Positions 44,601-64,000 are shown, counted from the first letter of the stretch. The stretch: DNA of 64,000 nucleotides from an uncultured delta proteobacterium (GCA_963733195.1 CAVTCR010000065.1:64001-128000); one strand, 5' to 3'. Notes: generated from the letters alone by a model not told the origin. A program made the numbers and translations.

Positions 44601-44918
44601 TTCAGCCAGACTGGTGAAACCCACGACGTCAGCAAACAATACTGTGACTGGCCGCCGTTCCGCCTCGACAACTATCGGGTGCGTACCTGCGACAGAAGCT
44701 ATCTCTGTCTGTTGAACTGTAGGATGATGAACAGGAGCCGAGCGTTCGGGTGTCGTCGCACTTCTTGGCGAAATCCCCGTGCCGCACTTGGGGCAATAAA
44801 GAAACTCCAAAGGACAAACGTAGCCACACTGTGGACAGTCCCGGCTCAGCTTATTGCCGCACTTGGGGCAGAACTGAAAGTCCGCTGCAACTTCGAATTG
44901 GCAAGTAGGACAAGACAT
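41694..44918 (-). CDS. double zinc ribbon - class III adenylate/guanylate cyclase - AAA ATPase - TPR protein
   Basis: CPTC..CPKCG..CPQC..CPKCG, VTVLFADVVGFT..FIGDA..GDAVNVAARMQ, GEAGIGKS, EDFQWAD, TPR helices. Intact frame. Confidence 0.95.
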   Translation of the reverse strand: MSCPTCQFEVAADFQFCPKCGNKLSRDCPQCGYVCPLEFLYCPKCGTGISPRSATTPERSAPVHHPTVQQTEIASVAGTHPIVVEAERRPVTVLFADVVGFTSLAEQLDPEELRSLMMGCFQTLAEEIRHYGGFIEKFIGDAILAVFGAPVAHEDDPERAVRAALGMQVRLQQIRTSTSGATAGALTMRIGINTGLVVAGTVGEGKDYGVVGDAVNVAARMQQIGAPGQVTISEETHRFIRKSFDCRPLGAVSLKGKAQPTQAFEVIGPRVGRASILEAELLRSPLIGRDEELRQLMELFARARKGRTQVVSLIGEAGIGKSRLLAEFLHQLSTDGLLNQITVYQTVCSALGSEAYHVLIDFFRTCFALTPEDSATQARDKIATILQAIGAPSEPIIPVVENLLGFAAKELHFEHLDPEQLKRQLFLAMKEICQCQCEQRPVVLVVEDFQWADAASVELLRSLVDRVSDRPLLLLLVARPTAQISVMYGAKVDSTNIHLQPLTAEDSEALLEALIGPLVSPFQPTLRDLLTRRAAGNPFFLEEAVHSLIDTGILQKTAEGTRFSGDLTNLEVPTTVQGVVLSRLDSLEAAAKQLLLEAAVIGTNFELALLRQIATRPQELQTHLETLLRADLLSEIPGTAGQPTEYRFRNTLIQEVAYNSLLRKRRALLHKQSAEAMERLYAQHLDKYLPQLAHHYSRSDDRVRALQYLLRFGDSAARMYANLDAVGCYRRALELLAQQDDQPELKAEVLEKLADTHDSLGEPEAALEFWQAALARYETLGQKERLAAVHRKIGLHWWGQGNREKAIAYFQHGLDLLAEQPENSEAALLYHEMGRLHFRSGDDQQAIVWAQKALEAGQRLSAPEVLSHAFNTLGISLARRGELEEGIAKVEQSLQVALQHDYLAAACRAYTNLGMLLAAIDREQALSYCHEGLALAKKIGDLSQQSWLHASVASSFCSLVGDCSQGIEAAEASIALDQQLGQRNHLPIPLILLAQIYQCQDRLDESERYYLEACAIAEEVGEPQQLFPCYDGLATLSLARGDTVKAEEYLAKGQEICQKTGYSPDTLIMLPFLC

Positions 44919-45184
44919 TTTGTAAGCTCTTAGCTGCTCAGCTAGCAGCAACACGAAGAAAATTTCTCGATTTCCTCAGTTGTCTAGTTTGGCAATAGCA
45001 GGTCGAGGCTCATCTTTCCATGTCTTTGCTAAGAGCTGAGGGCTGAAAGTTGAATACAAAGCTGATATTACCTGAGTTCGGCTTCGTCGCTCCGATCTGG
45101 AAATACAACGGATTATTGACAGTGTGCTGCCGCTCGATGACTCGCAATGCGCGTCAGGAATGGGGTTGGGAGCCCACGTATACA

Positions 45185-46922: not shown

Positions 46923-47975
46923 CTAAAAAATGCGATAAATGTCGGTTGCCTCGGTAAAGTTTTTTAAGTGCTGGCGTCCGACTTTTTCGACCTGATAGCG
47001 ATTCTCGAGTCGCTGCACGGTCTCCGGACCGACCAAAATCTGATTGGTTGTTGCCGTTCCCGCGAGCCGGGCAGCCAGGTTTGTTACTGGGCCGCTCGCA
47101 GTGAAAGTCCAACGCGTACTGTGGAGCCCTTCGAAGCGTACAGAGCCGACCAAGGCGACGCCGGAGTTGATTCCCATGTGAATGGACAATGGCGGTTCAC
47201 CGCTCGTCTGGTTCAAGACTGCGGTGGTCGCGAGCAGTGCAATCGCGGTCTCTACTGCCTTCTGTGAATGCAGACGGTGATCTGCAGCCTGGAAGATTGC
47301 CATAAAGCCGTCGCCAGCCGTTTCATTGATGTCACCTCCGGCTTCTTGGATATCGTCCAGGAACGCCGAAAAATAACGTTCTACTAATCGGTTCAGGGTG
47401 TTCGGAGGCAACTGTTCACTCAGGTGCGTATAATCACTGATATCGACAAACAGGACCGATACGTCGTATTCGTGCAAGGCAAGATCTGGTACTTGTGGGT
47501 TGGCGATGACCAGACGTTTCACCATCTCTGGCACGAACTTAGCGAAGTGGTCTTTGATGCAGTGCAGCTCACCAACTTTGTTCTCCACCGCTCGCTTCCA
47601 TCTCACGGCTGTTTGAATCCTGGCTTGTAACTCTCGGGGGTTCACTGGTTTGGTGAGGAAATCATCGGCTCCAGCCTCGATTCCCTGGATGCGGTCTTCC
47701 GGTGCGCCTAGGGCAGTCATCATCACAACCGGGATAAGCTGGGTTTCCACCTGCTCCTTCAAGCGGCGGCAGACGGTAAACCCATCCATGCCGGGCATCA
47801 TGACGTCCAACAGAATCAGGTCAGGAGTTTCAGATGCGACCTTTGCTAACGCTTCTTCCCCGCTTTTTGCACTTACTGTTTGATATCCTAGATCTTCTAG
47901 CTCCTGTTCCAGATAGTCGACGTTCAAAGGCACGTCATCGACGATCAGGATTTTAGGCGGCAGATTCATGTTCAT
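46923..47975 (-). CDS. response-regulator receiver - class III adenylate/guanylate cyclase
   Basis: KILIVDD..LILLDVMMPGMDG..DFLTKP, VSVLFVDISDYT..TAGDGFM..GINSG..GPVTNLAARL. Confidence 0.95.
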   Translation of the reverse strand: MNMNLPPKILIVDDVPLNVDYLEQELEDLGYQTVSAKSGEEALAKVASETPDLILLDVMMPGMDGFTVCRRLKEQVETQLIPVVMMTALGAPEDRIQGIEAGADDFLTKPVNPRELQARIQTAVRWKRAVENKVGELHCIKDHFAKFVPEMVKRLVIANPQVPDLALHEYDVSVLFVDISDYTHLSEQLPPNTLNRLVERYFSAFLDDIQEAGGDINETAGDGFMAIFQAADHRLHSQKAVETAIALLATTAVLNQTSGEPPLSIHMGINSGVALVGSVRFEGLHSTRWTFTASGPVTNLAARLAGTATTNQILVGPETVQRLENRYQVEKVGRQHLKNFTEATDIYRIF

Positions 47976-47985
47976 ATAAATCAGG

Positions 47986-48024
47986 CGTAAAAAGAGAGAG
48001 AACAAAATGTTCATGGAGTGAACA
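47986..48024 (-). promoter_or_regulatory. shared operator/promoter motif, copy 3
   Basis: Minus strand TGTTCA-N5-TGAACA-N3-TGTTCT-N8-TTACG. Confidence 0.55.
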
Positions 48025-48039
48025 ACGGAGGGAAGCACT

Positions 48040-48160
48040 CAGCCGTCAGCTTTCAGCTTTTACTGGAGTCTTGAGGTCCGCCTCTTTTGGCTGACCACTG
48101 ACTGCTGATCACTGAGTACTTCTTCTGCTGGCTGGCTGCTGAGAGCTAATAGCTGAATGC
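48040..48160. repeat. heptamer tandem/inverted repeats
   Basis: TCAGCCG TCAGCTT TCAGCTT ... GCTGACC ACTGACT GCTGATC ACTGA, then GCTGGCT GCTGAGA GCTAATA GCTGAAT. Confidence 0.7.
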
Positions 48161-48181
48161 TTGCTTGGAGGGCAGAAGAAT

Positions 48182-48556
48182 CTAGGGACCGGGGCGTACC
48201 CCAAGATACTGGGCCAGTTTCTGAAACAACAGTTCTTCATCGAGTGGTTTACTGAGGTAGTCATCACAACCAGCCTGTCGGGCTTTTTCCTCATCCCCGC
48301 GCATGGCGTGGGAAGACAGAGCAATAATCGGAATACGCTGGAGCGTGGCATTGGCTTTGATACGGCGAGTGGCTTCCCATCCATCGATCCCAGGTAATGA
48401 GAGATCCATGATAATCAGATCCGGCTGTTCACGTTCGGTTGTCGCGATTCCAGTTGCACCATCAGGGGCGGTGAGAACTTTGTAGGTGTCCTCTAGAAGT
48501 TGAACGAGCAGGTCACGGTTGAAGTCGATGTCTTCGACAATCAGGATGCGTTTCAT
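48182..48556 (-). CDS. single-domain response regulator (DivK/CheY-like), copy 2
   Basis: KRILIVED..PDLIIMDLSLPGIDG..IIALSSHAM..GCDDYLSKP. ATGA overlap with the upstream kinase. Confidence 0.95.
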   Translation of the reverse strand: MKRILIVEDIDFNRDLLVQLLEDTYKVLTAPDGATGIATTEREQPDLIIMDLSLPGIDGWEATRRIKANATLQRIPIIALSSHAMRGDEEKARQAGCDDYLSKPLDEELLFQKLAQYLGVRPGP

Positions 48557-51500
48557 GTGTTTCCACTTTCTGCTGATAGCGATTGTTGCTTGTGATAGAC
48601 GACTGGAACGGTAACCGTAAACGTTGAACCCTTGCCAAGATCACTCTCGACTGCAATTGATCCGCCTAACAACTCGGCCCACCGTTTAGCAATTGGCAAT
48701 CCCAGCCCCGTGCCTTGGCGTCCCTGCGCCTCCTGGGGTAACTGTTTGAACTCTTCGAAGATATCCTCAAGGGCCTCAGCGGCGATGCCCACCCCGGTGT
48801 CAGCAACAGCAATCACGAGTCGTGCTTCGCCTCGCGCCCACTCTACTTGGCGCGCACGAACCACCACTTCGCCAGCTTCGGTAAACTTAATCGCGTTGCT
48901 CAAGAGATTGAGCACGATCTGTCGCAGTCCGTCTTCGTCTGTATACGCTTGCCTGACCTCGTCGGAAACCTCATGCCGCAGTTGTACCCCCGGTTTGACT
49001 AGGGGAACCACGGTATCACAGCACGTCTGAATAAATCGCTCGATAGCGAAATCGATCGGACGCACCTCCATCCGCCCCGCTTCGATCTTCGAGAGATCAA
49101 GAAGATCGTTGATAAGATTGAGCAGGTGGTCGGCGCTCTCTTTGACTTTGACCAGATTGTCCCGCTGACGCTCTGGGAGTACATCTCCGGTCCGCCGCAA
49201 GACGAGGCGAGTGAAACCAATAATGGCATTCATCGGCGTGCGTAGCTGGTGCGACATCCCAGCCAGGAACTGTGATTTCCGTCGGGTCACTTCCATGACC
49301 TGCTGATTGGCCATCTCCAGTTCCCAGTTCTTCTCCTCTAACGCCCGTGTCCGTTCTTCGACCTTCTGTTCCAGGGTCTTACTGTAATCTGCTAACTGCG
49401 TGTTAGTCTCTTCGAGACTTCCGTACAGACGGGCATTCTCGATCGCAATCGCTGCCTCAGCACCTAACAGGTGCAAAACCTCCAACCGATCAGGGGTAAA
49501 AGCTCCCGTGGTCAGATTGTTCTCCAGATACAGAAGGCCGGTGAGTTTGCCCTGTGCAACAAGGGGCGTGCATAAGATAGATTTTGGTTGTACTGCACTA
49601 ATGTACGGATCAGTTGCGAATCTTGCTTCCTTTGTTGCATCAGTCAAGACAACCTGCTCCTTCATTCTTTCGACGTAGCGGAGAATGGCAAGCGGCAAGT
49701 CATTCTGCGTTTCCACTGGAACAGATTGCAGGGTTTGTACTTCGCTGCGTTCAATCGCCTTTTCGGCTTCGATGACCAAATGTCCATCTTTTTCGAGGAT
49801 AAGAACGCCTCTTTGCGCCCCCGCATTTTCAATCATGAGGGCCATCAATTTAGTGAGGAGTTTATCCAGGTGAATCTCGCTCGAAATAGCCTGCGAGGCG
49901 TGAAGGATACTGGTGAAGTCGAAAGCGTTTGACAGCCGTTGCTCAGTACTGGCAGTAAACATGCCCCCTCCAGATTGAGAAAAACTAGGGCTAGTGTGAG
50001 CAAGAAGTTGAGGATAGCGGGTTTCTAAGTCTTTAACCTTTGCTAACGCACCCCAGCGCACATAGGCATAGTGAGCATCTCGCAGATAGTGTTGCGCAAG
50101 TCGGACTGGCCTCTGGCCAGATAAAATTTGCCGCCAGTTCATTGGCTAAGGCTTCTTCGTTGACATATTCATGTCTTGCGCCAGATCGATGGCTTGGTCG
50201 TAGTATTCTCTGGCATCGCGATCATTCCCCAACACCCGCGCACGTTCCGCTTCCACCAGATAGAATTTATGCAGATAAGTTCATCGGGGCGTGCTGCGCC
50301 CAGAGCTTCATCTTTTCCTGGTTGGCCGCAACCTTTTCAAGGATGCTTTTCTGTTCAGACTCCTGGTGTCGGGAAATATGGCCAGCCTGGCCAGGGAATC
50401 GTACAAGTGAAAGGCGGGAACAGCCGCGGTTCCGACTAAACTATCCAAATACTTTTCTGCTACGGCCGCATGTTCAATGGCTTGGGCGTATTCTTGAAAC
50501 AGATGACAGAGGACGAGTTTGGTAGATATATGTGGCAAATGGTATTCTCATCGTTAGCTTTAAGTCGAAGAGGTAGATGTAGTCTCCTCGTCGTAGCTTT
50601 CACCGATTAATTGGCATGGATTTTTAGCTCGCCCCAGCAAATTTAGGAAAACTTGCCTATATAATTCATTGAGATTCAGAGCATGACCTTGCTTGAGTTG
50701 GCGTATAGCATCATTGTATTTTGTCATCTCCTGTTCTAGCCCGGTCAGTCCATGCCCATCCAAAATGCCTGAAAACCGTAGCCTTGCAAGTTGAAGGCGG
50801 CAAAAATCAGATCGCCGGTTTCCAGCCCTATTTGATATCCTTCCAGAAAAGGTGGAAGCGTTTCTTTAATATGTTCCTTCCAGTGCCGGATGAAGGCATT
50901 CACCATGTAGGTGACACTCGATTTGAGCCCCCGTGCGTTGAGCCGTTCTACCAGGTTCAATGCTAAGGTGCCGAACTGATAGCCAGCATCGATATCTCCT
51001 ACTGCTCCACAGAGAATAATCCCATACGTGGCATATGCTTGGGCCGAAAGAGGTATATTGCCACGTTGCGCCGACAAATTAACCATACGAAACACAATGA
51101 GGGGAAAGAGCTTAGGGAACGCTACATACGAAGGATGCAGCGTAGCTGAGAGAATGCGCATTTTGGCTATTGCATACGGATCCGTCATGGCTGGCAGATG
51201 AAGAAGCTCTTCGACGCACTTGCCGGCCAGAACTTGCCTTGTCTCTTCGAGACCGCGCAAAATATCTGCCTGGCTCGGCTCCTCAGGGAGCCGCTCCCCT
51301 AATAGCTCCAGAACCTGGAGGCCTGTCTTCAATCCTTCCAAAGATTGCTCTGGGCGGAAGAGGCATGGAGCATCACTTCATAGGCTCTGACTCTATCTAA
51401 CGGAGCTTTCGCCCATCGCAGCACGAGTGCGGTCAAGTGCTCCATCTGCTGAAAGTCGCCGCTGAGATAGGCGGCTTCTGCGGCCTCGACATGAAGCGTT

Positions 51501-53875
51501 AACGCTAGTTCATACTGTTGCTCCCAAGCGTCTTCCGGTAACAACTCCAGACCAGATTGGAAATACCTGAAGGCGGGCTCGTAGGCTGCTGCCGCTTTTG
51601 CTTTCTTCCCAGCCGTCAAGTTTAAGGCCGCCAGTTCATTTTGCTGCCAGGGGTGTCGTATCGACTCTCTCCCTGAGTTCAGATGGTTAGCAATCAGAAA
51701 AATCTTTGCCTCCTGCTCGTCTTGTGAAGTTCGGCGCAAGAGCAGTTGCCCACCTGCCAGTGAACCGCTTGCTTATCCGCTGAGGGAATGAGGGAATACA
51801 CTGCTTGCTGAATACGGTCATGGGCAAACTTGTACTCCACCGAGACTTCATCAAAGAGCCCCTGTACGTCAAGGCCTGCCAATGTGTACGCATCACCAAG
51901 AGGGAGAACGAACCCGTCTGCGAGGGCTGGCCACAGCTCCGTGGCGGTCTCCGAGAACGACTTTTCATAGACAGTGGCGAGGGTGCGCAGATCGAACTGG
52001 TTGCCTAGGCATGCCGCCAGCTTCAGTACCTCTTGCGTCTCTACGCCGAGTTTTTGTACCTTGCCAACCATCAATTCGACGACATTGTCGGTGATATTCT
52101 GTGCACGAATGTGCGCCACATCCCACTGCCACTCACGCCTCTGGGTATCGAAGGCGAGGAGTTCCGCTGTGGAAAGCGATTTGAGAAACTCAGCGACGAA
52201 GAAGGGATTCCCAGCAGTTTTGGCCAGCACCAGTTCCGCCAATGGTGTAGCCTTTTCTGGCGGACAGGTCAGGGTGTCAGCAATGAACTGCTGGAGGTGC
52301 GGGAGGTCTAACGGGCCTAGGGCAATATGATTGACCATTCCTCCCTCTTTGCGAATGTCGTTCACCGTCAACTGTACTGGGTGGGCTTCTGTCACCTCGT
52401 TATCGCGGTAGGCGCAGATGACAAAGAGATAGGAATTCTCCGCGTGCGGTCAGCAAAAGTTGCAAGAGGTGTAACGACGCACTGTCAGCCCACTGCAGAT
52501 CGTCGAGAAAAAGGATCAACGGCCGGTCAGGTCCGGTAAACACGCGGACAAAATTCTGGAAGGCCAGGTGCAAGCGATTTTGCGCTTCTGCTGGTGGGCG
52601 GGGGGAATCGCAGGCTGTGGCCCAACAATCAGTTCAACTTCAGGGATGACATCAATTACAACCTGGAGGTTAGGCCCAAGGGCGACAATCAAGGCATTTT
52701 TCCAAGCAGTGATCTGCTCCTCACTTTCTGTTAGGATCTGTTGGACCAGAGCGCGAAAGGCTTGGGCCAAAGCGGCGTACGGAATGTTTCTCTGGAATTG
52801 ATCAAATTTCCCCGCAATGAAATATCCACGTTGCTGTGCCATGGGTCGGTACACTTCCCGCACTAGGGCGGTTTTGCCGACACCCGCAGAACCGGACACC
52901 AACATAAGCTCACGAGCGCCCTGGCTGACGCGGGTAAACGCTCTCACTAAGGTATCGATATCTTGCTCGCGCCCGTACAGCCTTTGCGGAATCTGGAGTT
53001 GCGCTCTTACTTCCTGCTGACCAAGCGAGAAAGCAACAATCTCTCCTGTCGTTTGCCATTGCCGCAGGCATTCCTGCAAATCGGCAATGAGTCCAGGGGC
53101 CGATTGATACCGATCCTCAGCATTCTTCGCTAACAGCTTCATCACAACCGCAGAGAGAGGAAGGGGAATCTCTGGTACCAATTCATGCGGTGGGGGTGGC
53201 TGCTGCGCAATATGCGCATGGACAAGGGCAAGTGCATCCGTCCCGAGAAAAGGCACGCGACCGGTCAGTAACTCATAGAGTGTGACACCTAGCGAGTAGA
53301 AGTCAGTACGATAATCCACCACGCGATTCATGCGTCCAGTTTGCTCTGGCGACATGTAGGCAAGCGTTCCTTCTAAACCAGTAGGGTGTTGGAAAGGGGA
53401 ATTTTCGCGACTGAGCTGCGTAGCAATGCCGAAGTCGATCAACTTGAGCTGCCCCGTTTGCAGATTTAGCACGAAATTCGTAGGATTCACGTCTTTGTGG
53501 ATCACCTGCTGCTGGTGCACTTGCTCAACAATATCGATAAGCTGGATTGCTAGAGGCAGGAGCGTCGTGAGGGGAACTCGACCATTCCGTAGAAGCTGCA
53601 CCAGCGACTCGCCGCCGAAATCTTCTAATACCATGACTGGACGATGCTGGTCAGCGGTGAGCTCGTAGGCGCGAATGACTCCTGGCAGTTGGAGGCTGCA
53701 GAGCAACTGGTATTCGCGCCGAAAAGCGGCGAGCTTTCGTGGCGAGGGGTATTCTTCTCTAAGCGTTTTGAGAATGACAAACTGCGGCTCTGCTTCCTTG
53801 CGCACGGTAGATGAGCGAGAAGCGACTCTCATAGATTTTTTCCTTAACCTGACAAACCGCAATAGTCGTGATCAT
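48553..53875 (-). CDS. Ser/Thr kinase - AAA ATPase - TPR - GAF - histidine kinase, copy 2 (frameshifted, about 1770 aa)
   Basis: [84 protein letters not shown]. Confidence 0.93.
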
Positions 53876-53949
53876 TGTTGGGATCTCGCGCCTGTTGCAA
53901 TCCTATGCTCGACGAAGCGACATGGTCTGATGACCTTATAAACCGTTAC

Positions 53950-54082
53950 TATTCACTCTACAAACAATATATTAAAGCTCGACGCGGTCTATCAGTTGCG
54001 TTGCGCTTCGGCCCGGCCTTATGCAGCGTGCGACAGTGGTGCACAATCACCTCACCGGCCAAGACCGGACACGCAACAGCTG
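53950..54082 (-). pseudogene. 3' remnant of a PhyH dioxygenase gene
   Basis: Manual translation AVACPVLAGEVIVHHCRTLHKAGPKRNATDRPRRALIY matches AVACPVAAGEAIVHHCRTLHSAGPNKTDKPRRALVV at 59.9 kb. Confidence 0.88.
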
Positions 54083-54170
54083 AGTCTCCACCCCCCGCCG
54101 TTCGTGCGCATGGCGCACGCTACGAGGGACAGGCCAATGGAGCACCTGTACGAATCTCGTGTGGTCTGAT

Positions 54171-54546
54171 TTAGGGACCGGGACTCGCCCCGAGAAACTG
54201 GGTCAGTTTCTCGAACAACAGTTCTTCGTCGAGTGGTTTACTGAGGTAGTCATCGCAACCGGCCTGTCGGGCTTTTTCCTCGTCCCCCCGCATCGCATGT
54301 GAGGACAGGGCGATAATCGGGATATGCTGTAGCGTCGGGTCGGCTTTGATCCGGCGGGTGGCTTCCCAGCCATCGAGAACTGGCAATGAGAGGTCCATGA
54401 TAATCAGGTCCGGGATGTTCACGTTCGGCTGACGTGATCCCGGCTGCTCCATCATTAGCAGTGAGGACTTCGTAGTTATCCTCTAAAAGCTGCACCAGGA
54501 GGTCCCGATTAAAATCTACGTCTTCGACAATCAGAATCCGTTTCAT
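54171..54546 (-). CDS. single-domain response regulator, copy 1 (frameshifted)
   Basis: [23 protein letters not shown] + PDLIIMDLSLPVLDG..DDYLSKP. Confidence 0.93.
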
Positions 54547-57500
54547 TAGTCCGCACTTTCTGCACAGCGATTTCTTGCGGCTTTCGGTAGACGAGCGGAA
54601 TCGTAACGGTAAATGTCGAACCTTTTCCAGGCTCACTCTCTACCGTAATTGATCCGCCCAGCAGTACAGCCCACCGTTTGGCAATCGGCAATCCCAGCCC
54701 CGTGCCTTGGCGTTCCTGCGCATCCCGGGGTAATTGTTTGAACTCTTCGAAGATATCCTCAAGAGCCTCGGCGGCGATGCCGACCCCGGTGTCGGCAACG
54801 GCAATCACGAGCCTTGCTTCGCCGCGCGCCTGCTCTACTTGCCGCGCACGAACCACCACCTCGCCAGCTTCGGTAAACTTAATCGCGTTGCTCAAGAGGT
54901 TGAGCACGATCTGTCGGAGTCCGTCTTCGTCCGTATATGCTTCCCTGACCTCGTCGGAAACCTCATGCCGCAGTTGCACCCCCGACCCGACAAGGGGAGA
55001 CACCGTCTCACAACATGTCTGAATGAAGCGGTTGACATCGAAAGATTCAGGACGCACCTCCATCCGCCCCGCTTCGATCTTCGAGAGATCCAGAAGATCG
55101 TTGATAAGATTGAGCAGGTGGTCGGCGCTCTCTTTGACTTTGACCAGATTGTCCCGCTGACGCTCTGGGAGCACATCTCCGGTCCGCCGCAAGACGAGGC
55201 GAGTGAAACCGATAATGGCATTCATCGGCGTGCGTAGCTGGTGCGACATCCCAGCCAGGAACTGCGATTTCCGTCGGGTCACTTCCATGACCTGCTGATT
55301 GGCCATCTCCAGTTCCCAGTTCTTCTCCTCCAACGCCCGTGTCCGTTCTTCGACCTTCTGTTCCAGGGTCTTACTGTAATCTGCTAACTGCGCGTTAGTC
55401 TCTTCGAGACTTCCGTACAGACGGGCATTCTCGATCGCAATCGCTGCCTCAGCACCTAACAGGTGCAAAACTTCCAACCGATCAGGGGTAAAAGCTCCCG
55501 TGGTCAGATTGTTCTCCAGATACAGAAGGCCGGTGAGTTTGCCCTGTGCGATAAGGGGCGTGCATAAGATAGATTTTGGTTGTACCGCACTAATGTACGG
55601 ATCAGTTGCGAATCTTGCTTCCTTTGTTGCATCAGTCAAGACAACCTGCTCCTTCATTCTTTCGACGTAACGAAGAATGGCAAGCGGCAAGTCGTTCTGC
55701 GTTTCCACTGGAACAGATTGCAGGGTTTGTACTTCGCTGCGGTCAATCGCCTTTTCGGCTTCGATGACCAACTGTCCATCTTTTTCGAGGATAAGAACAC
55801 CTCTTTGCGCCCCCGCATTTTCAATCATGAGGGTCATCAATTTAGTAAGAAGTTTATCCAGGTGGATCTCACTCGAAATAGCCTGCGAGGCGTGAAGGAT
55901 ACTGGTGAAGTCGAAAGCGTTTGACAGCCGTTGCTCGGTACTTGTAGTAAACATGCCCCCTCCAGATTGAGAAAAACTTGGGCTACTGTGAGCAAGAAAT
56001 TGCGGATAGCGGGTCTCTAAGTCTTTGACCTTCGCCAGCGCTCCCCAGCGCATGTAGGCATAACGAGCATCGTGCAGATAATGCTGGGCAATCGGCTCTT
56101 GGCCTCTGGCCAGATAAAATTTGCCGCCAGTTCATTGGCCAAGGCTTCTTCGTTAACGTACTCATGTTTCTTGCGCCAGATCGATGGCTTGGTCATAGTA
56201 TTCTCTGGCATCCCGTCATTGCCCAAGACCCGTGCACGTTCGGCTTCCACCAGATAGAATTTATGCAGAAAGTTCATCGGGGCGTGCTGCGCCCAGTTCT
56301 TCATTTTCTCCTGATCAGCAGTGACCTGTGTGAGAACGTCTCTTGTCGGATACCGGAAGGTCAGACAATATGGCCAATCTCGCTAAAGAACTATGAAATA
56401 GAGACGGGAACGTATGGCCGTCCCCGGCACTCCCTCTAAATAATTTTCTGCTTTATCGGCATGGGCAATGCTTGAGGAAATCGTGAAACATATAACACAG
56501 CATCAATTTGTGGAGTAAATTAGGGATAGCGCATTCCTGTTATTTGCTTCACAGAAGAAGTGGAAGTTTCGTTTCCTCATTGTAGTTGTCGCCGATCAAT
56601 CGACAGGAGTCTGAGACAGGGGTGGTAAATTCAAGACAATTTGATGGTGCAGGGAAATTAAATTAGAGACAGTTTCCTGCTTCAGTTGATCCGCAATCTC
56701 ACTGTATTTCGATATGCTATGTTCTAGCTCTGCCAATTTCTCACCGCTCCAATACGCCTTGAAAGCAATAGTCGAACGCCGCCTGGGTCCAATACTTACA
56801 TCCCCTGTCTCTAAAGCAATTCTGTATGCCTCGAGTGAAGGTTTTAAGGTATCTCTAACATGTCTTTCCAAAGTCTGACAAACCCGTTGACCATAAATAT
56901 AGCACTCGCTTGGATCTCTTTGGCATTGAATCGCTCCCCAAGGGTCAAAGCGAGTTGACCAAACGATAGCCGTGTCAATATCTCCCAGCGATCGTAGATA
57001 AAATAAACCCGTAAGAAGCATACGCTCGGGCCGAATGGGTGTATTGCCATACCACCGATAATTTGACTACGTACACACAATGAGGGGAAAGAGATCAGGC
57101 GCGCCAATGTAGGCGGGGTGAAACAGTCGCATCAGGATCTTCATTGCTGCCAATTGATAGGGATCTGTCATCTCGGGTAGATTGAATAGGTCTTCGATTT
57201 TTTTCCGACCAAAGCTCGCTGTGTTTCCTCCAACCTTGAAAATATCTTCTTGGCTCGGTTTTTCAGGAAGCTGTATCCCCAACAATTCCAAGACCTGTAG
57301 ACCGACTCTAATTCCCTCTTGTTTATCCTGTATAGCATAAGTGGCATAGACGTATCTCGTACACTTTCACTTTGTCGAGCAGAGTTTTGGCTTGTTGCAG
57401 GACAACATCAGTCAATCGCTCCATCTGCTCATAGTCGCCGACAAGGTAGGCTGCTTCCGCCGCCTCGGTATGAAGTGCCAGGGCCAGGTCGTACTGTCGC

Positions 57501-59836
57501 TCCCAGGTATCTTCCCCTAACAGACTCAAGCCAACCTGGAGATAATCGAGGGCCGGCCCATATGCCGCTTCTGCCTTTGCCTTTCTGCCGGCTATGAGAT
57601 TGAGCTCTGCTAACTCATCCTGCCTTGCCTGTTGGCGAGCCAATCGCGTCCCAGATTGAGATGGTTAACAATAGCAAAGATCTTTTGCTCGCGATCGTCT
57701 GCTACACATTCTGCAGGAGCAGTTGACCTATTTGCCAGTGTACACCCTGTTTGTCCGCGTCGGGAACAAGGGAATAGGCGGCGTGTTGGATTCGGTCATG
57801 GGAAAACTGGTACTCAACCGTCACTTTCTCCGCCAACCCTTGAACATCGAGATTCATGAGCATGTAGGCACTCCCCAGAGGCGAGACCAAACCTTCTTCC
57901 ATCGCATCCCACAAATCAGCCGCGGTTTCTCTAGCAGAATGCTCATACACGATTGCGAGCGTTTGCAGGTCAAACTGATTACCCATACACGCTGCTAACT
58001 TCAAGAACTGTTGTGTTTGCTGCCGAGCTTTTGCATCTTTCCGCCATTAGTTCGACGACATTATCGGTTATATGTTGCGCCCGAATATGCGCGAAGTCCC
58101 ACCGCCACTCACGCTGGAAATCGAACGTCAATAGCCCCTCAGTGTAAAGCGATTTCAAGAACGCATGACAAAAAAAGGATTCCCGTCGGTCTTGGCGAGC
58201 ACCAATTCTGCCAACGGACGGCCTCCTCTTTGGTGCACTTGAGTGAGTCAGCAATCAACTGACACACGTCAGGAATCCAGCGGTTGCAGAACAATATGAT
58301 TCACAACCTGCCCGCCTTTCTGAATCTCGTCGAGCGTAATTTCAACGGATGGGCTTCGTCACTTCGTTATCCCGATACGCACCGATAACAAACAGATAAT
58401 GGTTTTCCGGCGCAGTCATAAAGGGTCGAAGCAGATTCAGCGAAGCAGAGTCGGCCCATTGCAAATCGTCGAGGAAGAGTACAAACGGACGTTCGTCCTG
58501 TAAACACGCGAATGAAGTTCTGGAACACCAGGGTAAAGCGATTTTGCGCCTCTGCCGGAGGAAGGCGGCACGGCCGGCTGCGGGCCAACAATCAGTGCGA
58601 TTTCAGGAACGAGGCCAACCATAACCTGACGATTCGGTCCGAGTGCGGCGAGCAGTTTCTCTCGCCACGCGGCAATCTGACTCGCTTTCTGTTAATAGCT
58701 GCCGCATCAGAGACCGAAAGGCCTGCGTTAACGGTGCATAAGGAATTTCTTGTGGAATTGATCGAATTTGCCTGTGATAAAGTACCCTCGCTGTCGTGTA
58801 ATTGGCTTATAGACTTCCTGCACCAAGGTGGATTTGCCAATGCCAGCGTGTCCGGAAACAAGCATCATTTCGCCGGCTCCCTGGCTGACGCGCGCAAAAG
58901 CGGTCAGGAGTGTCTAATATCTCGTTCGCGTCCGTACAGCTTTTGCGGGATACGAAATTGGTCCGCACGTCCTGCCCGCCAAGCGGAAAGAGATCAATCG
59001 CCCTCTCGCTTGCCGTTGCCGATGCATTCCTCTAGGTCTGCCTTCAGGCCATACGCCGACTGGTAGCGATCTTCGGCATTCTTCGCCATCAGTTTCATCA
59101 CGATAGCGGAGAGAAGCTTGAGGAATGTCAGGGAGGAGCTCGTGGGGTGCACGAGGTTGCTTGGCGAGATGGGCGTGCATGAGTTCCAATGCATCGACGG
59201 TCGGAAAGGGTAATTGTCCTGTCAGCAATTCATAGAAACTGACACCGAGCGAATATAAATCGGTCCGATAGTCCATGGTCCGGTTCATACGCCCGGTTTG
59301 CTCCGGCGAGATGTATGCTAACGTTCCTTCCCCTACCGTCGGGTTACGCACGATCTGGATTTTCGCGTGACAGGACTGTGGCAATACCAAAGTCGATCAG
59401 TTTGACTTGGTCCGTTTGCGGATTCCACACGATATTGGAGGGATTCACATCTTATGCATCACATGCTGCTGATGCACGTGGCTCAAAATGTCAGCGATCT
59501 GAATGGCCAGCGGGAAGAAACTCGGCTGGCAGGGAATCGTCTTTGTCTCTTCTTCAGATGCAGTTCGAGCGACTCACCGCCAAAATCCTCTAGCACCATG
59601 ACGGGACGGTGCTGATCAGTTGTCAGGCTATAGGCGTTGATGACCCCTTCCAGTCGAAAGCTCCGGGTCAGTTCGTACTCCCGTCTGAACCAGGCAACTT
59701 TTTCCGGCGGAGGGTAGGGCTGTTTCAGGATTTTAAGGATGACGGACTGCTCTTCCTCCTCCCGACGACCGCGATAGATGAGCGAGTGTTCACTCTCATA
59801 GATCTGTTCCTGAACATGGTAGCCTGCGATAAGCAT
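54546..59836 (-). CDS. Ser/Thr kinase - AAA ATPase - TPR - GAF - histidine kinase, copy 1 (heavily frameshifted)
   Basis: [67 protein letters not shown]. Confidence 0.9.
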
Positions 59837-59872
59837 GGGTATCTCTCGGACCCTCGACTGGCTGCGATCTTT

Positions 59873-60554
59873 CTAGCAGTCTCCTATCACTTGACAGACG
59901 ACCACTAATGCTCGACGAGGCTTATCAGTCTTATTAGGCCCGGCAGAATGTAAGGTGCGACAGTGATGAACGATAGCCTCGCCAGCCGCCACCGGACAGG
60001 CGACAGCTTCCGAGAATTCGACATTCTCTGCCACAAGATGATCATCATGGGGATGATGCGGGAGGACGTCTCCCAAATGCGAGCGCCCTATGTAAGAGAG
60101 ACAACCTACTTTCGGACGTTGCAGGGTCTAATGGCATCCATACACTAGCGCCGTGATACGGAGGTGGACGATACGCGGCGTCTTGGTGCCAGGGAGTCTC
60201 ACTGCCGTGGGCTGGTTTGCAGAATATGCGCCATCCATTGAGAAGGTGTGTTTCCTCGACGTCGAGAAGACGTGCAACCGCCTTGCGTGCGTTCCGCAAG
60301 AAGAGCGTACTTTTCAATGCAGGAACCACTCCTTCGGGTGACAGAATTGCTACCAAGGCAGGAGGTGGGTGTCCACCAAGCAAAAGAGTTAACTCCTCCG
60401 GAGTATACCCTTTCCTCTGCTTGCAAATCATATCGTAGGCATCTTTAAGCCACGCAAGTTCCTGGTCAGTGGTGACGCGACCGAGGTTGAGGAATCCCTG
60501 TTCTTGGAAACAACGGACGTGTTCATCTCTTAAGTCAATACAGGCGTCTTCCAT
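59873..60554 (-). CDS. phytanoyl-CoA dioxygenase (PhyH)-family Fe(II)/2OG dioxygenase (one frameshift)
   Basis: FQEQGFL..KPAHG.ETPWHQDAAY..VWMPLD..GEAIVHHCRTLHSAGPN..RRA (HxD...H triad). Confidence 0.93.
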
Positions 60555-60602
60555 GTTCCGTCGTCTCCTTATTCCTGTGGGCTAAGGTCTGCATGTGAAC
60601 GA

Positions 60603-62874
60603 CTAGAAAAAAAAGTGCCGAGGGTTCAACTGGTCTTCGGCCAAGGGGTTGCACCCGCCAGCCCATTTGTACAGGCACCTCATAGAGTCGGCCACGAGCA
60701 AACCGAGGCCAAAAGTGTCGTAACCCTGGAACAATAACCTTTACGACATGAAGTCCAATGTCCGGTCGGGTCTGGTCCAATACCAGTGTTTCAAGCCCTT
60801 TCTGTGCGGCACTCCCTACGCAGGTCATTACATCCACATAGAGATCATCAGTCCACTGCCGAGGATAGTCACGCTGTTTCTTCGGAGCCAAAGTCTCGTC
60901 AGGCATCAAATAGGGTTGGTTTTCGCGGGTAGCAGTTTTCCACCATGAAATCGCCTCGGGGTCAGCGGACAGATATTGTCCGTCTTGTGCAGGCGAGCAA
61001 GGGGACACAGCCGGCAGCAATTGATTCACTTCCGTCAGGGCGCGAAGAAGAGCGATGTATGGGTCAAAGTGAGTACCGAACCCCAAAAGAATGTCTTCAA
61101 CCTCCTTATCGTTTCGGCGTGAGATCGCGGCAAAGGCGGGGATGTTGAAATCGCTTGTGATATCCAGCACCCACAAGTCGCGATGTAGTATCTTGTAATA
61201 GTCTTGCAGTTCCTGGAAGTATGGTTCGGAAAAACTGGAAAGATCTACCGCCGGTTTTTGTAAGCGGTTGTACCACCATAACGCGACACAATCACGCTCT
61301 ATGAGTTCCATGAAGCCCTGGAGTATGGCTTCTTCTTTGCTGTGGCCAGCGGCGCATCCGTTTGAATCTGCACGGGCGAACCAACTATAGTGCTTTCGCG
61401 AATACCCGTAGTAGCAGTAAGCGGTTGGAACGTAACGCGGTTCGCCATGGGTCAGCGACCACACTGGACTCCACTCGATCTCTTGAGCATCCTCAAAGGG
61501 CTCTGGCACCCAACTCGACGGAGAGCCAATCGCATTCCAGGCTTTACGATCCTTCAACTGGGTCTCACTAAAAAGCATACAGTCACGAGGATGGATAGCC
61601 GCGCCGCCGAAATCTTTGAGCCTGGCGCAGAATACGGGCTTCGTCACCCTGAAAGACACCCGAGTAGCGTTCAATGGCTTCACATAAGGCACTGGCTTTG
61701 GCTTGGCTAGAATCCTGCCCTTGCCGGCTGAAGCATCACGCAAAGTTGCCTGAAGAAAATCCATGTCCCAGGTGTAATCTTTCGACGCATGAATAAAATT
61801 ATGACCCGTGACATAGGACAGCACCAAGCCATGCTCTCCCATCCATGGTGTAGTCGGCTGAATCGTGTGCACGATGCCAGAGATGGACTAATGTGATGCT
61901 CAAGCTTCTTGAGTGTTTCTTCAGGGGAAAGGGTGCGATGTCCACCGTCAATGGTAAACACCTTCTTCCGGCTTTGCAGTATTATTGGCGCAGCTTGTCC
62001 AGATGCAAAAGCGGTCGGATCGCCACAGTGCGAGCACTGAGATCGTCGTACCACTGTATGACTACGTCGTGCCAACGAAAAAGAAGGTTGACAGAAACAA
62101 CATGACTTTCGAGGTCTTCATTTCGTCCACGAACAATCCACTTGGCCGTCTCGGTTGCAGCGATGTTAAGCGCCGTGTGGATCGTTGGAAGGGAGAGCTG
62201 CCACAGCGCGAGCCATTGGGGGAGCAACATTCAACTTTTCTTGTACATAGCTTTCGACTTTACGAGCCCCGCGGAGCCGGTGGGCAAGGCACGCCCAACA
62301 GGCTGTCTTGCTGGAAGAAAGAGCGGCCCTAGCCACACCTCTGTCCCCACCGGTTTGACTAACAACCACGGGCGGTCACTGGCGAGAGCTTGTCGGTTGA
62401 ATGTCTCCAAATCTGGGTGCAGGTAATCCTTGGTGAGAACGACCCAGTATTCCCCATTGTCCACGACTCGAACACCGAGTGACGTCAGAATCGTACGGAA
62501 GGGAAGAGGATCGATGTCGCCACAGGAGATAACGGAGACAGGCACTTCCTGCAGACGCCTGGCAGCCTTTTCTGCGCCCCCATCAAACATGTCCCAGAAG
62601 GCCGCTTGCTCCAAGGGGAGAGACAGGGGTTCATCAACAAGATAACCCCTGCTACGTAACCTCATGAGGGCCGAGAAGATCTCCGAGGCAGGAAACTCAT
62701 CCTGTAGGCGATTGATGATCTCATCGACCATGTGTTGACCGTTGAGAAGTGGCACCAGATAAGTGTACACGCCGCTGCGAAGCGGGACGTGTCCCTGTTC
62801 CGACAAGAGAACACGCCTTCTCCAGGAACAATCGCCCAACGAAACCACGGCTTGAATTGCGGTCGGGGGATCAT
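60603..62874 (-). CDS. TOMM cyclodehydratase, fused RRE/E1-like + YcaO (frameshifted)
   Basis: N-terminal wHTH/RRE (LVPLLNGQH..LMRLRSRGYL), PWLLVKPVGTEVWLGPLF..CWACLAHRL, DGGHR, AGKG..AKASALCEAIERYS, SNGCAAG..EEAILQGFMELIERD, VKVIVPGLRHFW..GRLYEVP..LNPRHFFF*. Confidence 0.95.
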
Positions 62875-62938
62875 GGCTTCTCGGCTCCGTCGTCTTCTCA
62901 TAGCCAAACCGCCGAAAAGATCTATGCTCTCCGCGGGG

Positions 62939-63236
62939 TCAGCAGGTCAGCCGAAGAAAGAACTTAAAAAGAAGCGCTGCTGTACCATCTATGATACTTA
63001 GGAGCTGAGCATCAGAAAAATCGCGAGGGAGCAGGCGGATTAAACAATCTCAAAAAGACTATCAAGTAAGTAATATCAACATTAGCGAGATTTAATATTG
63101 CGGCGCATTTTCTTTGACCGCTTCATTGGGATCTGTCTCGAATAGGTCTTTGAAAGACGCATCGTTGTCAAGCTTGACTACTTCACCAGATAAACGCATA
63201 TATTCGACCCCAATCGTCTGGCTTTATCGCTGTCAT
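62939..63236 (-). CDS. NHLP/TOMM-like precursor peptide B (stitched across indels)
   Basis: GGGAG RBS. MTAIKPDDWGRIYAFIW..DNDASFKDLFETDPNEAV..DFSDAQLLSIIDGTAALLFKFFLRLTC*. Directly upstream of YcaO. Confidence 0.65.
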
Positions 63237-63299
63237 AATCGAGTCTCCCTGTGAAAAATAGCAAATTACTGACCTAACTGAACCAAGCGCATTAAGACT

Positions 63300-63662
63300 T
63301 TCTACAAATAGCTCTCTTAAAGTAGAGCTACTTGCCCTATACCGTACCAGAAAGACCTCAGGGGACTTCTTCAGCTCATTATGCAGTATTGATTTGCCGT
63401 TCATGATAATGGCCAAAAGCTGGGGGCAGTCATCTGGCTAAATTTCGTCTCTCCTTGCGCGAAAATATCGTCTTCATAGAACTCTATGTTGGGGATCACA
63501 GGATGAGGAAGAGGCCCGCCGAATTGCCCCTGAATCTGCCGATATGCTAGAAGCGGGTCGGTTTCGAGTTTCACTTTGAAGGAAGGATCTGTGCCAGCCT
63601 CCCGTAATAGCCTTGGCCCATGCTCGGGCCCAATACTTTCTCTCTAGGTCTCCGTTTGCCAT
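63300..63662 (-). CDS. NHLP/TOMM-like precursor peptide A (3' end uncertain)
   Basis: AAAGGAG RBS. MANGDLERKYWARAWAKA..EAGTDPSFKVKLETDPLLAY..MTAPQLLAIIMNG. Paralogous to precursor B. Confidence 0.6.
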
Positions 63663-63709
63663 AGCTCTTCTCCTTTCTTCCGCTAGGTTTCATCGCCTAT
63701 GGGCCGACA

Positions 63710-64000
63710 TTATCCGTTCATCGCCTTAATGGATGGTGCAAAAAAGTAGCCGCCTCCTGTGGGGATTACCCAACGAGGCTGCGGTAAAGCCACTTCTTCA
63801 GTACCATCTCCAAACGCAATGCGAAACTTCCGAGGGAGGTTTCTATTATTTTGCCCGATGATCGGATCGTAACCTGGCTCCTTCTTATCTCTGAACCAAG
63901 AAGAATTCGCTACGTGTTTGTATATGTTCAAATTGATTTTCAATCGAGGTTTGGTAAGCAATGAAGAAGAGACCTCGGTCAACGGTATCGTCGATAGGGT
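63710..64000 (-). CDS. DyP-type peroxidase, C-terminal part (runs off the window)
   Basis: DRGLFFIAYQTSIENQFEHIQ..ANSSWF..GYDPIIGQ..WVIPTGGGYFFAPSIKA. Confidence 0.88.
   Translation of the reverse strand, partial: TLSTIPLTEVSSSLLTKPRLKINLNIYKHVANSSWFRDKKEPGYDPIIGQNNRNLPRKFRIAFGDGTEEVALPQPRWVIPTGGGYFFAPSIKAMNG

Follow-up and report, generated by a model that had tools for sequence, protein, structure and literature searches.

Does the YcaO gene cluster at one end of this stretch of DNA encode a working signalling system, in which a modified peptide is read by kinases inside the cell, or only what is left of one? The stretch (G000:C65:64001-128000, 64,000 nucleotides from an uncultured delta proteobacterium; hereafter the window) belongs to a contig that extends 14 kb further, and the cluster spans ~65.2 kb down to 46.9 kb on its minus strand. 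A first reading made from the DNA letters only (the sequence-only reading) had proposed a cluster for a peptide made on the ribosome and modified after translation (a RiPP) that is wired to cytoplasmic kinase receptors and a cyclase. Searches against Pfam and NCBIfam bear out the gene list, order and domain content given there: the 3′ end of a DyP-type peroxidase gene (DyP), a precursor region, an RRE/E1-YcaO cyclodehydratase fusion (CD fusion), a PhyH dioxygenase gene, a first kinase (K1), a stand-alone receiver (REC1), a PhyH remnant, a second kinase (K2), REC2 and a REC-Guanylate_cyc gene (REC-cyclase). Both kinases have the architecture Pkinase-AAA_16-helical/TPR-GAF-HisKA-HATPase_c, as assembled from window pieces in which the domains are split over frames. 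However, the genes were assumed to be intact, which does not hold for K1, K2, the CD fusion, DyP, PhyH, REC1 and the precursor. At a probability of roughly three in four, the window contains a pseudogenised composite copy of a conserved cluster, the intact form of which probably works as set out below, while a surviving GAF-HisK-REC-cyclase relay has probably been kept.

Damage was counted by chaining frame pieces against intact homologues, segment by segment, and frames were taken from a stop-to-stop map, in which most genes of the cluster are cut into many frames. K2 exhibits ~11 frame changes and one nonsense codon, K1 ~20 frame changes and three nonsense codons. The nonsense codons are located at 51114 (K2) and at 57933, 57704 and 56719 (K1), and the diagnosed indels of K2 include those at 53793, 52602, 52445, 51751, 50276 and 50173. 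Viewed against the 84.6% identical DNA of the kinase gene from a genome of the same genus (G001), the isolated events in K2 are mostly single-base insertions or deletions (indels) in a conserved, non-homopolymer context, with a few located in short G/C runs. The CD fusion contains five frame changes within its first ~1 kb (between 62874 and 61884, compared with the 756-amino-acid (aa) protein of G001), DyP lies in at least three frames, and PhyH and REC1 have one frameshift each. Intact or open are REC2, REC-cyclase, the YcaO domain (426 codons) and both GAF-HisK modules. As the sole precursor, the RRE half of the CD fusion, both sensor halves, DyP and PhyH are broken, and as G000 holds no second CD fusion or kinase of the cluster type, the window copy cannot work in the way that had been suggested for it. 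The breaks are local and do not reflect a genome-wide assembly fault: G000 keeps 62 stop-free frames of at least 1000 aa (7 of which reach 1500 aa or more), the share of sequence covered by frames of 200 aa and longer is 41% at 56-66 kb vs. 74% in the median 10-kb segment of this genome, and an adjoining frame of 1086 aa is open. That they represent real decay is considered very likely.

Intact counterparts of the cluster were found in other genomes. In G001 (contig C220, locus L068), genes for DyP (483 aa), precursor (248 aa, tail …RICLCC), CD fusion (756 aa), kinase (1774 aa) and REC (124 aa) are tightly packed on one strand and are followed by a REC-cyclase gene that is cut by the contig end. 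Locus L003 encodes a REC protein with an additional part (REC-x, 354 aa), precursor (238 aa), CD fusion (756 aa), kinase (1775 aa), REC (124 aa), an animal haem peroxidase (586 aa; PF03098 at 1e-14) and REC-cyclase (422 aa). On one side this cluster is flanked by genes for ring-hydroxylating dioxygenase subunits, an epoxide hydrolase, MgsA and NAD kinase, on the other side by those for a sigma-54 activator, a metallo-beta-lactamase (MBL)-fold protein, an O-methyltransferase and a hydrolase. The intact cluster (L003/L066) has no gene for a transporter, peptidase or SagB in the ~7 kb upstream and the 5 kb downstream of it. Likewise, the absence of an exporter, protease or dehydrogenase, on which the sequence-only reading had relied for the window, also extends over the 14 kb past its end. 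The whole of G000 gave no match to a SagB-type dehydrogenase (TIGR03605) at E<=0.001; in G001 and G010 a single SagB-type gene each is located on a contig other than that of the cluster.

The link between YcaO and kinase was followed with a scan that used the YcaO piece and retained one genome per species. It yielded 56 loci, 44 with at least 7.5 kb of downstream flank and 12 with too short a flank. Of the 44, 27 have a kinase homologue with Ser/Thr kinase (STK) and AAA domains downstream of YcaO and in the same orientation, starting 21 to ~7200 bases after it, with the loci being related and therefore not independent of each other; the start of a kinase is also visible in two of the 12 short-flank loci (L016, L013). 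In the tree of YcaO sequences, the clade of the window comprises six rows (99% SH-aLRT), and of the five other members all four with sufficient flank possess the kinase. A mostly cyanobacterial group contains it in 26 of 39 rows. The sister clade (8 rows, mostly with Gammaproteobacteria in their titles) has no such kinase; among the loci inspected, L049-L051 of this clade and the unplaced L044 have classical NHLP-type upstream peptides with a Gly-Gly-like leader end. Co-occurrence of YcaO and kinase, as postulated by the sequence-only reading, is hence found across genomes (27 of 44 loci and G001). Since this linkage is conserved and no export or processing set adjoins either the window copy or the intact cluster, the combination that this reading had named as speaking against it (a standard export and processing set just upstream and an unconserved kinase linkage) was not found.

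The genes that follow the kinase differ by lineage. REC-cyclase comes after the kinase in L003, G001 and L053, the latter being titled as Thioploca, and His kinase plus REC plus REC-cyclase is the output in these three and in the window. L028 has a hybrid HisK-REC protein, and in the Nostoc-type L042 the output is AAA_35. Nostoc-type kinases end in AAA_35 rather than in a His kinase, and a separate AAA_35 protein of ~450-480 aa is encoded upstream of many cyanobacterial clusters (noted at L042:13849-19659 and L015:7460-8869). An amidohydrolase gene is present in 38 of the 56 loci, within the clade of the window only in L053.

PhyH and a peroxidase of either the DyP or the animal-haem type recur as partners of the cluster, in line with the oxidative enzymes pointed out in the sequence-only reading. 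DyP-like genes are present in L019, L027, L053 and G001, animal-haem peroxidase genes in L003, L023, L033 and L074. A tblastn search of the 56 YcaO loci at 1e-5 with the halves of the window precursor and with PhyH gave no match, and the same search with the window DyP gave two weak matches; proteins from intact relatives were needed as queries. A metagenome scan with the PhyH piece of the window, from which 80 of 125 relatives were kept, showed that the four closest relatives (64-70% identity) are the only ones among these 80 that adjoin cluster genes. In L075 the order is YcaO 3′ end, PhyH and STK-AAA kinase, in L073 and L074 PhyH follows the YcaO 3′ end (with an animal-haem peroxidase next in L074), and in L072 PhyH precedes the kinase. 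The L072 protein matches PF05721 over the full profile (2e-25), and intact relatives have 233-253 aa. A transposase-like gene is also located beside PhyH and kinase in L072. As its four closest relatives adjoin YcaO and/or the kinase, PhyH is a real member of one subtype of the cluster.

The two precursors A and B of the sequence-only reading turned out to be halves of one broken gene, and intact relatives encode a single protein of 238-252 aa. Reading the window gene in three frames reveals several shifts and stops and an end in ...FFLRLTC, followed by a stop codon. Its helices are NHLP-like (W..W/Y), with …YWARAWAKA… and …DWGRIYAFIW…, each then followed by …D.SFK..(L/F)ETDP…. In intact relatives the two repeats are arranged in the same way and the protein ends in L-[S/C/T]-C. 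The 23 aligned family members share two W..(W/Y)A helices and, as last residue, a Cys that hardly varies; within the family, the branch of P0022 (E 9e-8) and P0025 (E 7e-6) is nearest to the window remnants. The gene is located immediately upstream of the CD fusion in L003, L068, L070 and L002. Both halves of the window gene shift by +1 just after the W-rich helix. Programmed frameshifting was nevertheless judged unlikely, since shifts of both signs and stops occur throughout the neighbouring genes. The assignment of the precursors to the TIGR03795 type could not be upheld, as neither the window pieces nor three intact relatives matched this family at E<=0.01 (cut-off 41 bits). A six-frame search for TIGR03795 at E<=10 in G000, G001, G010, G022 and G018 gave no match at the cluster loci, TIGR03793 and TIGR03798 gave no precursor match at E<=0.01, and neither the window pieces nor the intact relatives match any Pfam or NCBIfam family. 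The family is rare, with three matches in a word-based search of 5.8 billion proteins and 25 representatives at E<=1e-3 in a profile search among 1.84 billion.

For P0001, the precursor of L068:9209-9952, AlphaFold2 predicted a confident model (pLDDT 92.4, pTM 0.89; 23 aligned rows). Given this model and the short conserved tail, the substrate looks like a folded protein and not like a leader-core peptide. A fold like that of the nitrile hydratase alpha chain could not be shown, as a Foldseek search of the model against the PDB gave no match at E<=0.001 (best TM 0.18) and the ESM Atlas gave no usable feature match; its single-sequence model of the precursor was poor (pLDDT 0.37). A complex prediction for the precursor with kinase residues 560-1300 scored 0.00 in a run without controls and counts neither for nor against binding.

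The kinase of G001 combines Pkinase, GAF, HisKA, HATPase_c and AAA_16 in one protein without PF00211; the cyclase is a separate, REC-fused gene. Against TIGR03903 the protein reaches 172.7 bits (cut-off 705.75) and matches only profile positions 482-936. An alignment of 20 cluster kinases shows no variation in the ATP-binding Lys, HKD..N, DFG, Walker A GxxGxGK and Walker B DD. Residues ~800-1150 contain few invariant columns, which makes the middle region the least conserved part. The statement that the kinases lack obvious transmembrane segments is supported by a crude test, in which the highest Kyte-Doolittle mean over 19 residues was 1.4-1.75.

How the window copy reached its present state can partly be read from its divergence. 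Pieces of K2, REC2 and REC-cyclase show 74-88% protein identity to G001, the YcaO domain only 60% and DyP 45-52%. On the DNA level K1 is more distant (71% to the G001 gene and 75% to K2; blastn of whole genes). The idea that K1 and K2 are a recent tandem duplicate was rejected, because K2 is closer to the G001 gene (84.6%) than to K1 (75%). When K1 and K2 were compared by megablast, the alignment was confined to the 3′ 2.1 kb (GAF-HisK-REC), with 90% DNA identity, and synonymous divergence (dS) in the 3′ parts is 0.26 between the two kinases vs. 0.73-0.78 to G001. This low value beside the high dS to G001 suggests that gene conversion has homogenised the 3′ parts. PhyH precedes both kinases in the window, and G001 is without it. 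On the reading adopted here, the locus consists of two tandem cluster copies that differ in ancestry, one of which has lost its front genes.

Between the GAF-HisK modules of K1 and K2, 50.5 non-synonymous and 80.5 synonymous changes were counted (non-synonymous divergence (dN) 0.044, dS 0.257, dN/dS 0.17), and dN/dS is 0.07 for REC2 and 0.13 for REC-cyclase. The GAF-HisK modules, REC2, REC-cyclase and the upstream 354-aa REC protein look selectively kept, and the survivor is probably a cut-down relay leading from GAF-HisK via REC to the cyclase. In each of the three multi-domain pseudogenes the 3′ catalytic module is open (coordinates in Table 1) and the 5′ part is shredded. A module-wise retention of the 3′ catalytic modules is suggested.

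The intact cluster could be envisaged to work as follows. A globular precursor of ~250 aa with two NHLP-like repeats and an L-(S/C/T)-C end would be recognised by the RRE/E1-YcaO protein, which may activate the last peptide bond(s) with ATP and convert the C-terminal Cys to a thiazoline, as judged from its SagD/TIGR03882 membership. Further oxidation of the product would probably be due to a haem peroxidase (DyP or animal-haem type), joined in one subtype by the small PhyH, with no SagB-type dehydrogenase adjoining. The cytoplasmic dual kinase (STK, STAND NTPase, variable helical/TPR region, GAF, His kinase) would pass phosphate to REC and REC-cyclase and thereby give rise to a cyclic nucleotide, going by domains and gene order. 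The modified protein itself may be a ligand of the kinase, its substrate, or merely be co-regulated with it. In its most specific form, this amounts to a cytoplasmic signalling system in which a YcaO-made and further oxidised heterocycle on the C-terminal Cys of a folded 25-kDa protein, maybe formed in dependence on O2 or peroxide, is read by the helical/TPR region of a STAND dual kinase and translated into a cyclic nucleotide (via a His-Asp relay in the present case and via a cyclase fusion in the Burkholderiales), with the sensing half decayed in G000 and the relay kept and re-used. This full form is put forward as tentative and rather doubtful.

Several points weigh against a decayed copy of a conserved signalling cluster. 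The single public sequencing run contains 6% of the sampled words, and the 11 placed 151-base contigs cover no diagnosed indel site. Indels exceed nonsense codons by ~11:1 in K2 and 7:1 in K1, which is the signature of consensus errors and indel-richer than decay would be expected to be. The shredded 5′ part of K2 has a dN/dS of 0.16 against G001, equal to that of the open 3′ part (0.16), which leaves a choice between recent decay and spurious breaks. The YcaO domain is open too, without an obvious reason, 17 of the 44 loci have no kinase, some of them cyanobacterial and otherwise alike (L015, L020, L024, L037), and thiazoline formation with subsequent oxidation as well as the phosphorelay are predicted from family membership. 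The excess of indels and the low dN/dS of the broken K2 part would both fit frameshifts that are assembly or consensus errors confined to this region, with the cluster intact and working in the organism, and other multi-copy signalling genes of G000 look frame-split as well. Yet one error per 200-300 bases should have struck both GAF-HisK modules of ~1.55 kb, the 1.28 kb of YcaO and the adjacent 3.3-kb frame, none of which was hit. Indeed, at the densities of the 3.7 kb upstream of each GAF-HisK module (~11 frame changes in K2, ~20 in K1), simple arithmetic predicts ~5 breaks in the 1.54 kb of the K2 module, ~8 in the 1.57 kb of that of K1 and ~6 in YcaO, with none observed. Most indels lie outside homopolymers, the 62 long frames of G000 speak against a faulty assembly, and four in-frame nonsense substitutions, the stops in the precursor tail and the 40-aa PhyH stump are not indel errors, and neither is the transposase nearby. 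Errors as the source of the breaks are hence considered unlikely.

Two other views concern what the intact cluster does. The kinase might be an ordinary cluster-situated regulator that answers an unrelated cue, while the peptide is cleaved and exported by unlinked genes in the manner of a bacteriocin-like thiazole/oxazole-modified microcin (TOMM). In the available part of Haft et al. (2010, PMC2887384), related NHLP-Burk clusters are indeed treated as microcin-like TOMMs, the 354-aa REC protein at the head of the cluster (window, L003, L070, L002) could be a transcriptional output, and in G001 and G010 a SagB-type dehydrogenase is encoded on another contig. An exported product fits less well with the lack of a transporter or peptidase in the surroundings of the L003/L066 cluster and of the window copy, and with a precursor that has no Gly-Gly leader end, a core of just a few residues and a well-packed predicted fold over its whole length. 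The middle region of the kinase is its least conserved part, as expected if it tracks a cluster-specific partner, and the output domains of the cluster are cyclase or AAA_35 and not DNA-binding. An ordinary regulator beside an exported peptide is thus regarded as improbable. An anti-phage or conflict system, in which the STAND NTPase-kinase senses an invader and triggers a cyclic-nucleotide signal, would be in accordance with matches of PADLOC models for defence kinases (PD-T4-6, mad6) and Pycsar cyclases to the STK and cyclase domains. Avs-like sensors, too, have an AAA_16/TPR STAND architecture. These PADLOC matches are, however, limited to generic kinase and class III cyclase domains, with none for the CD fusion, precursor and DyP, and no effector (nuclease, pore, TIR or similar) was seen in the conserved gene set. 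The same kinase architecture is, moreover, common in cyanobacterial housekeeping signalling according to the accessible text of PMC2176072, and a role in defence appears highly improbable.

The features of the window copy are compiled in Table 1. The intact DyP of G001 belongs to TIGR01413 (132.9 bits, cut-off 100.5), and the 96-aa DyP piece inside the window has no Pfam or NCBIfam match of its own. The YcaO domain (60538-61887) matches PF02624 at 4e-89 (299.4 bits) and TIGR03604 with 233.8 bits (cut-off 219.25). An E1-like leader-binding domain is present, with a TIGR03882 piece of 51.4 bits (cut-off 36.9) and a match to the winged helix-turn-helix (wHTH) family PF21084, but it is not fused to YcaO in one frame, whereas the two are fused and intact in G001 and L003 (165.1 bits in L003). 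The PhyH match covers the first 178 aa and profile positions 1-139 of 213, with the C-terminal part in a different frame. REC1 consists of two pieces in different frames, 73 and 85% identical to the 124-aa REC of L003, the 3′ piece covering only positions 43-110 of PF00072. The PhyH remnant and the 3′ end of the PhyH gene are 71.6% identical over 109 columns in blastn, with the common translation AVACPV.AGE.IVHHCRTLH.AGP. REC-cyclase is 81% identical to that of G001 and 67% to that of L003; a search against solved structures gave receiver-domain matches only among the 60 matches listed.

Table 1. Features of the cluster copy, in window numbering
Feature	Coordinates	Strand	Basis and remarks
DyP-type peroxidase pseudogene, 3′ end	63713..64000, continuing to ~65227	-	Pieces compared with G001 DyP
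Single broken gene for a fused two-domain precursor	62915..63680	-	Three-frame reading
RRE/E1-like + YcaO cyclodehydratase (CD fusion) pseudogene	60607..62874	-	PF02624, TIGR03604, TIGR03882, PF21084; YcaO domain open, 61884-60607
Small PhyH-family dioxygenase gene	59873..60554	-	PF05721; one frameshift near 60130
Kinase K1 pseudogene	54551..59836	-	Open 3′ GAF-HisK part 56128-54554
REC1, stand-alone receiver	54189..54546	-	PF00072, match to L003 REC; frameshift near 54412
Remnant of a second PhyH gene, C-terminal ~40 aa	53961..54081	-	blastn against the 3′ end of the PhyH gene
Kinase K2 pseudogene, counterpart of the G001 kinase	48565..53866	-	Open 3′ GAF-HisK part 50103-48565
REC2, stand-alone receiver, intact	48200..48556	-	PF00072 8e-27; 80.7% identical to G001 REC
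REC + class III nucleotide cyclase, intact	46926..47975	-	PF00072 1e-32, PF00211 3e-20

The 14 kb beyond the end of the window contain the rest of DyP, the 354-aa REC protein, a SnoaL gene, a DDE transposase gene and AAA_16-TPR regulators. The 354-aa protein (65424-66485 in window numbering; L001:3424-4485, minus strand) has an N-terminal REC domain and ~200 C-terminal aa without a Pfam match; its gene comes first in the clusters of L003, L070 and L002 and in that of the window, where it is open. Upstream of the genes for this protein and SnoaL lies the transposase (DDE_Tnp_1_assoc and DDE_Tnp_1; L001:5800-7020, 67800-69020 in window numbering, minus strand). It is followed by three tandem regulators with wHTH, AAA_16 and TPR domains (L001:7343-16009, ~69.3-78 kb in window numbering, plus strand), the first of which is open (950 aa), while the second and third are split over several frames. 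Just downstream of the cluster, an intact 1086-aa protein (41694-44954, minus strand) combines a double zinc ribbon, a class III cyclase, AAA_16 and TPR. Dozens of copies of this family, several of them frame-split, are encoded by G000. Membership of this gene in the cluster was rejected, as it is missing from the clusters of the relatives and belongs to a large paralogue family.

The description as a candidate new system proved to be overstated, since Haft et al. (2010, PMC2887384), in the part accessible, already had NHLP-like precursors beside CD fusions and a large Ser/Thr kinase, and since NCBIfam lists TIGR03903 under the name 'TOMM system kinase/cyclase fusion protein'. Clusters of this type have been on record since 2010 through genome mining. 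No functional study of the product or purpose of the cluster was found in the literature, with supplements and ~1.7 million PMC articles lying outside the search, and nothing on the linkage of YcaO and kinase was found beyond Haft et al. (2010) and Cox et al. (2015). What is added here is that the link between YcaO and a giant kinase extends far outside the Burkholderiales, that the cyclase output recurs in two wirings (fused or via a phosphorelay), that haem peroxidases and a small PhyH are recurrent, with no SagB-type dehydrogenase, exporter or protease beside the clusters examined, and that the substrate, which has a conserved terminal Cys, is predicted to be well folded with no PDB fold match in Foldseek. 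Taken by itself, the window chiefly illustrates module-wise gene decay; experiments would be worthwhile on the intact clusters of G001:C220 and L003 rather than on the window copy. If the modified protein were truly the signal for the kinase, this would be a new role for RiPP-type chemistry.

Among known systems, the precursor resembles those of proteusins and prochlorosins (NHLP/Nif11-type RiPPs) in its long leader-like part, which is akin to the nitrile hydratase alpha helix motif (W..AW.D..F...L..DP), and in YcaO or other enzymes acting on the C-terminal part. Unlike these RiPPs, it has a conserved L-(S/C/T)-C tail instead of a Gly-Gly leader end and a hypervariable core of 20-30 residues, and its cluster is without an ABC transporter/peptidase. 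The kinase resembles the cyanobacterial dual kinases (cbSTKIII; HstK, Pkn40/Pkn41), which likewise unite an N-terminal STK, GAF and a C-terminal His kinase in one cytoplasmic protein and occur as tandem duplicates (Zhang et al., 2007, PMC2176072, as far as accessible). The available text of that study gives GAF and HisKA as extra domains and mentions neither AAA nor a YcaO neighbourhood, whereas the present kinase is linked to YcaO; many cyanobacterial cluster kinases end in AAA_35 instead of a His kinase.

The closest likeness in gene content is to the NHLP-Burk TOMM clusters. The available parts of Haft et al. (2010, PMC2887384) describe NHLP-Burk precursors in the vicinity of CD fusions. 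These precursors come in tandem pairs or, in Delftia and Acidovorax, as fusions, with Cys or Cys-Cys at the C-terminus, a description that is repeated in the accessible text of Cox et al. (2015, PMC4603692). Both cluster types share a CD-fused YcaO, long NHLP-like precursors that are paired or fused and have a Cys or Cys-Cys end, a giant Ser/Thr kinase that is cytoplasmic and contains an AAA/TPR region, a class III cyclase as output and, as far as the available part of Cox et al. (2015, PMC4603692) goes, the lack of a PatA/G-type protease. The cluster type described here is a variant of this NHLP-Burk TOMM plus Ser/Thr kinase (kinase/cyclase) cluster of Haft et al. (2010). It differs from it in a precursor that is not of the TIGR03795 type, in a kinase far below the TIGR03903 cut-off, in an unfused cyclase that stands behind GAF-HisK, REC and REC-cyclase in series, and in the addition of peroxidase (DyP or animal-haem) and PhyH genes. 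Its hosts, too, are not the Burkholderiales of the NHLP-Burk clusters but a different bacterial family, cyanobacteria and a Thioploca-titled metagenome-assembled genome.

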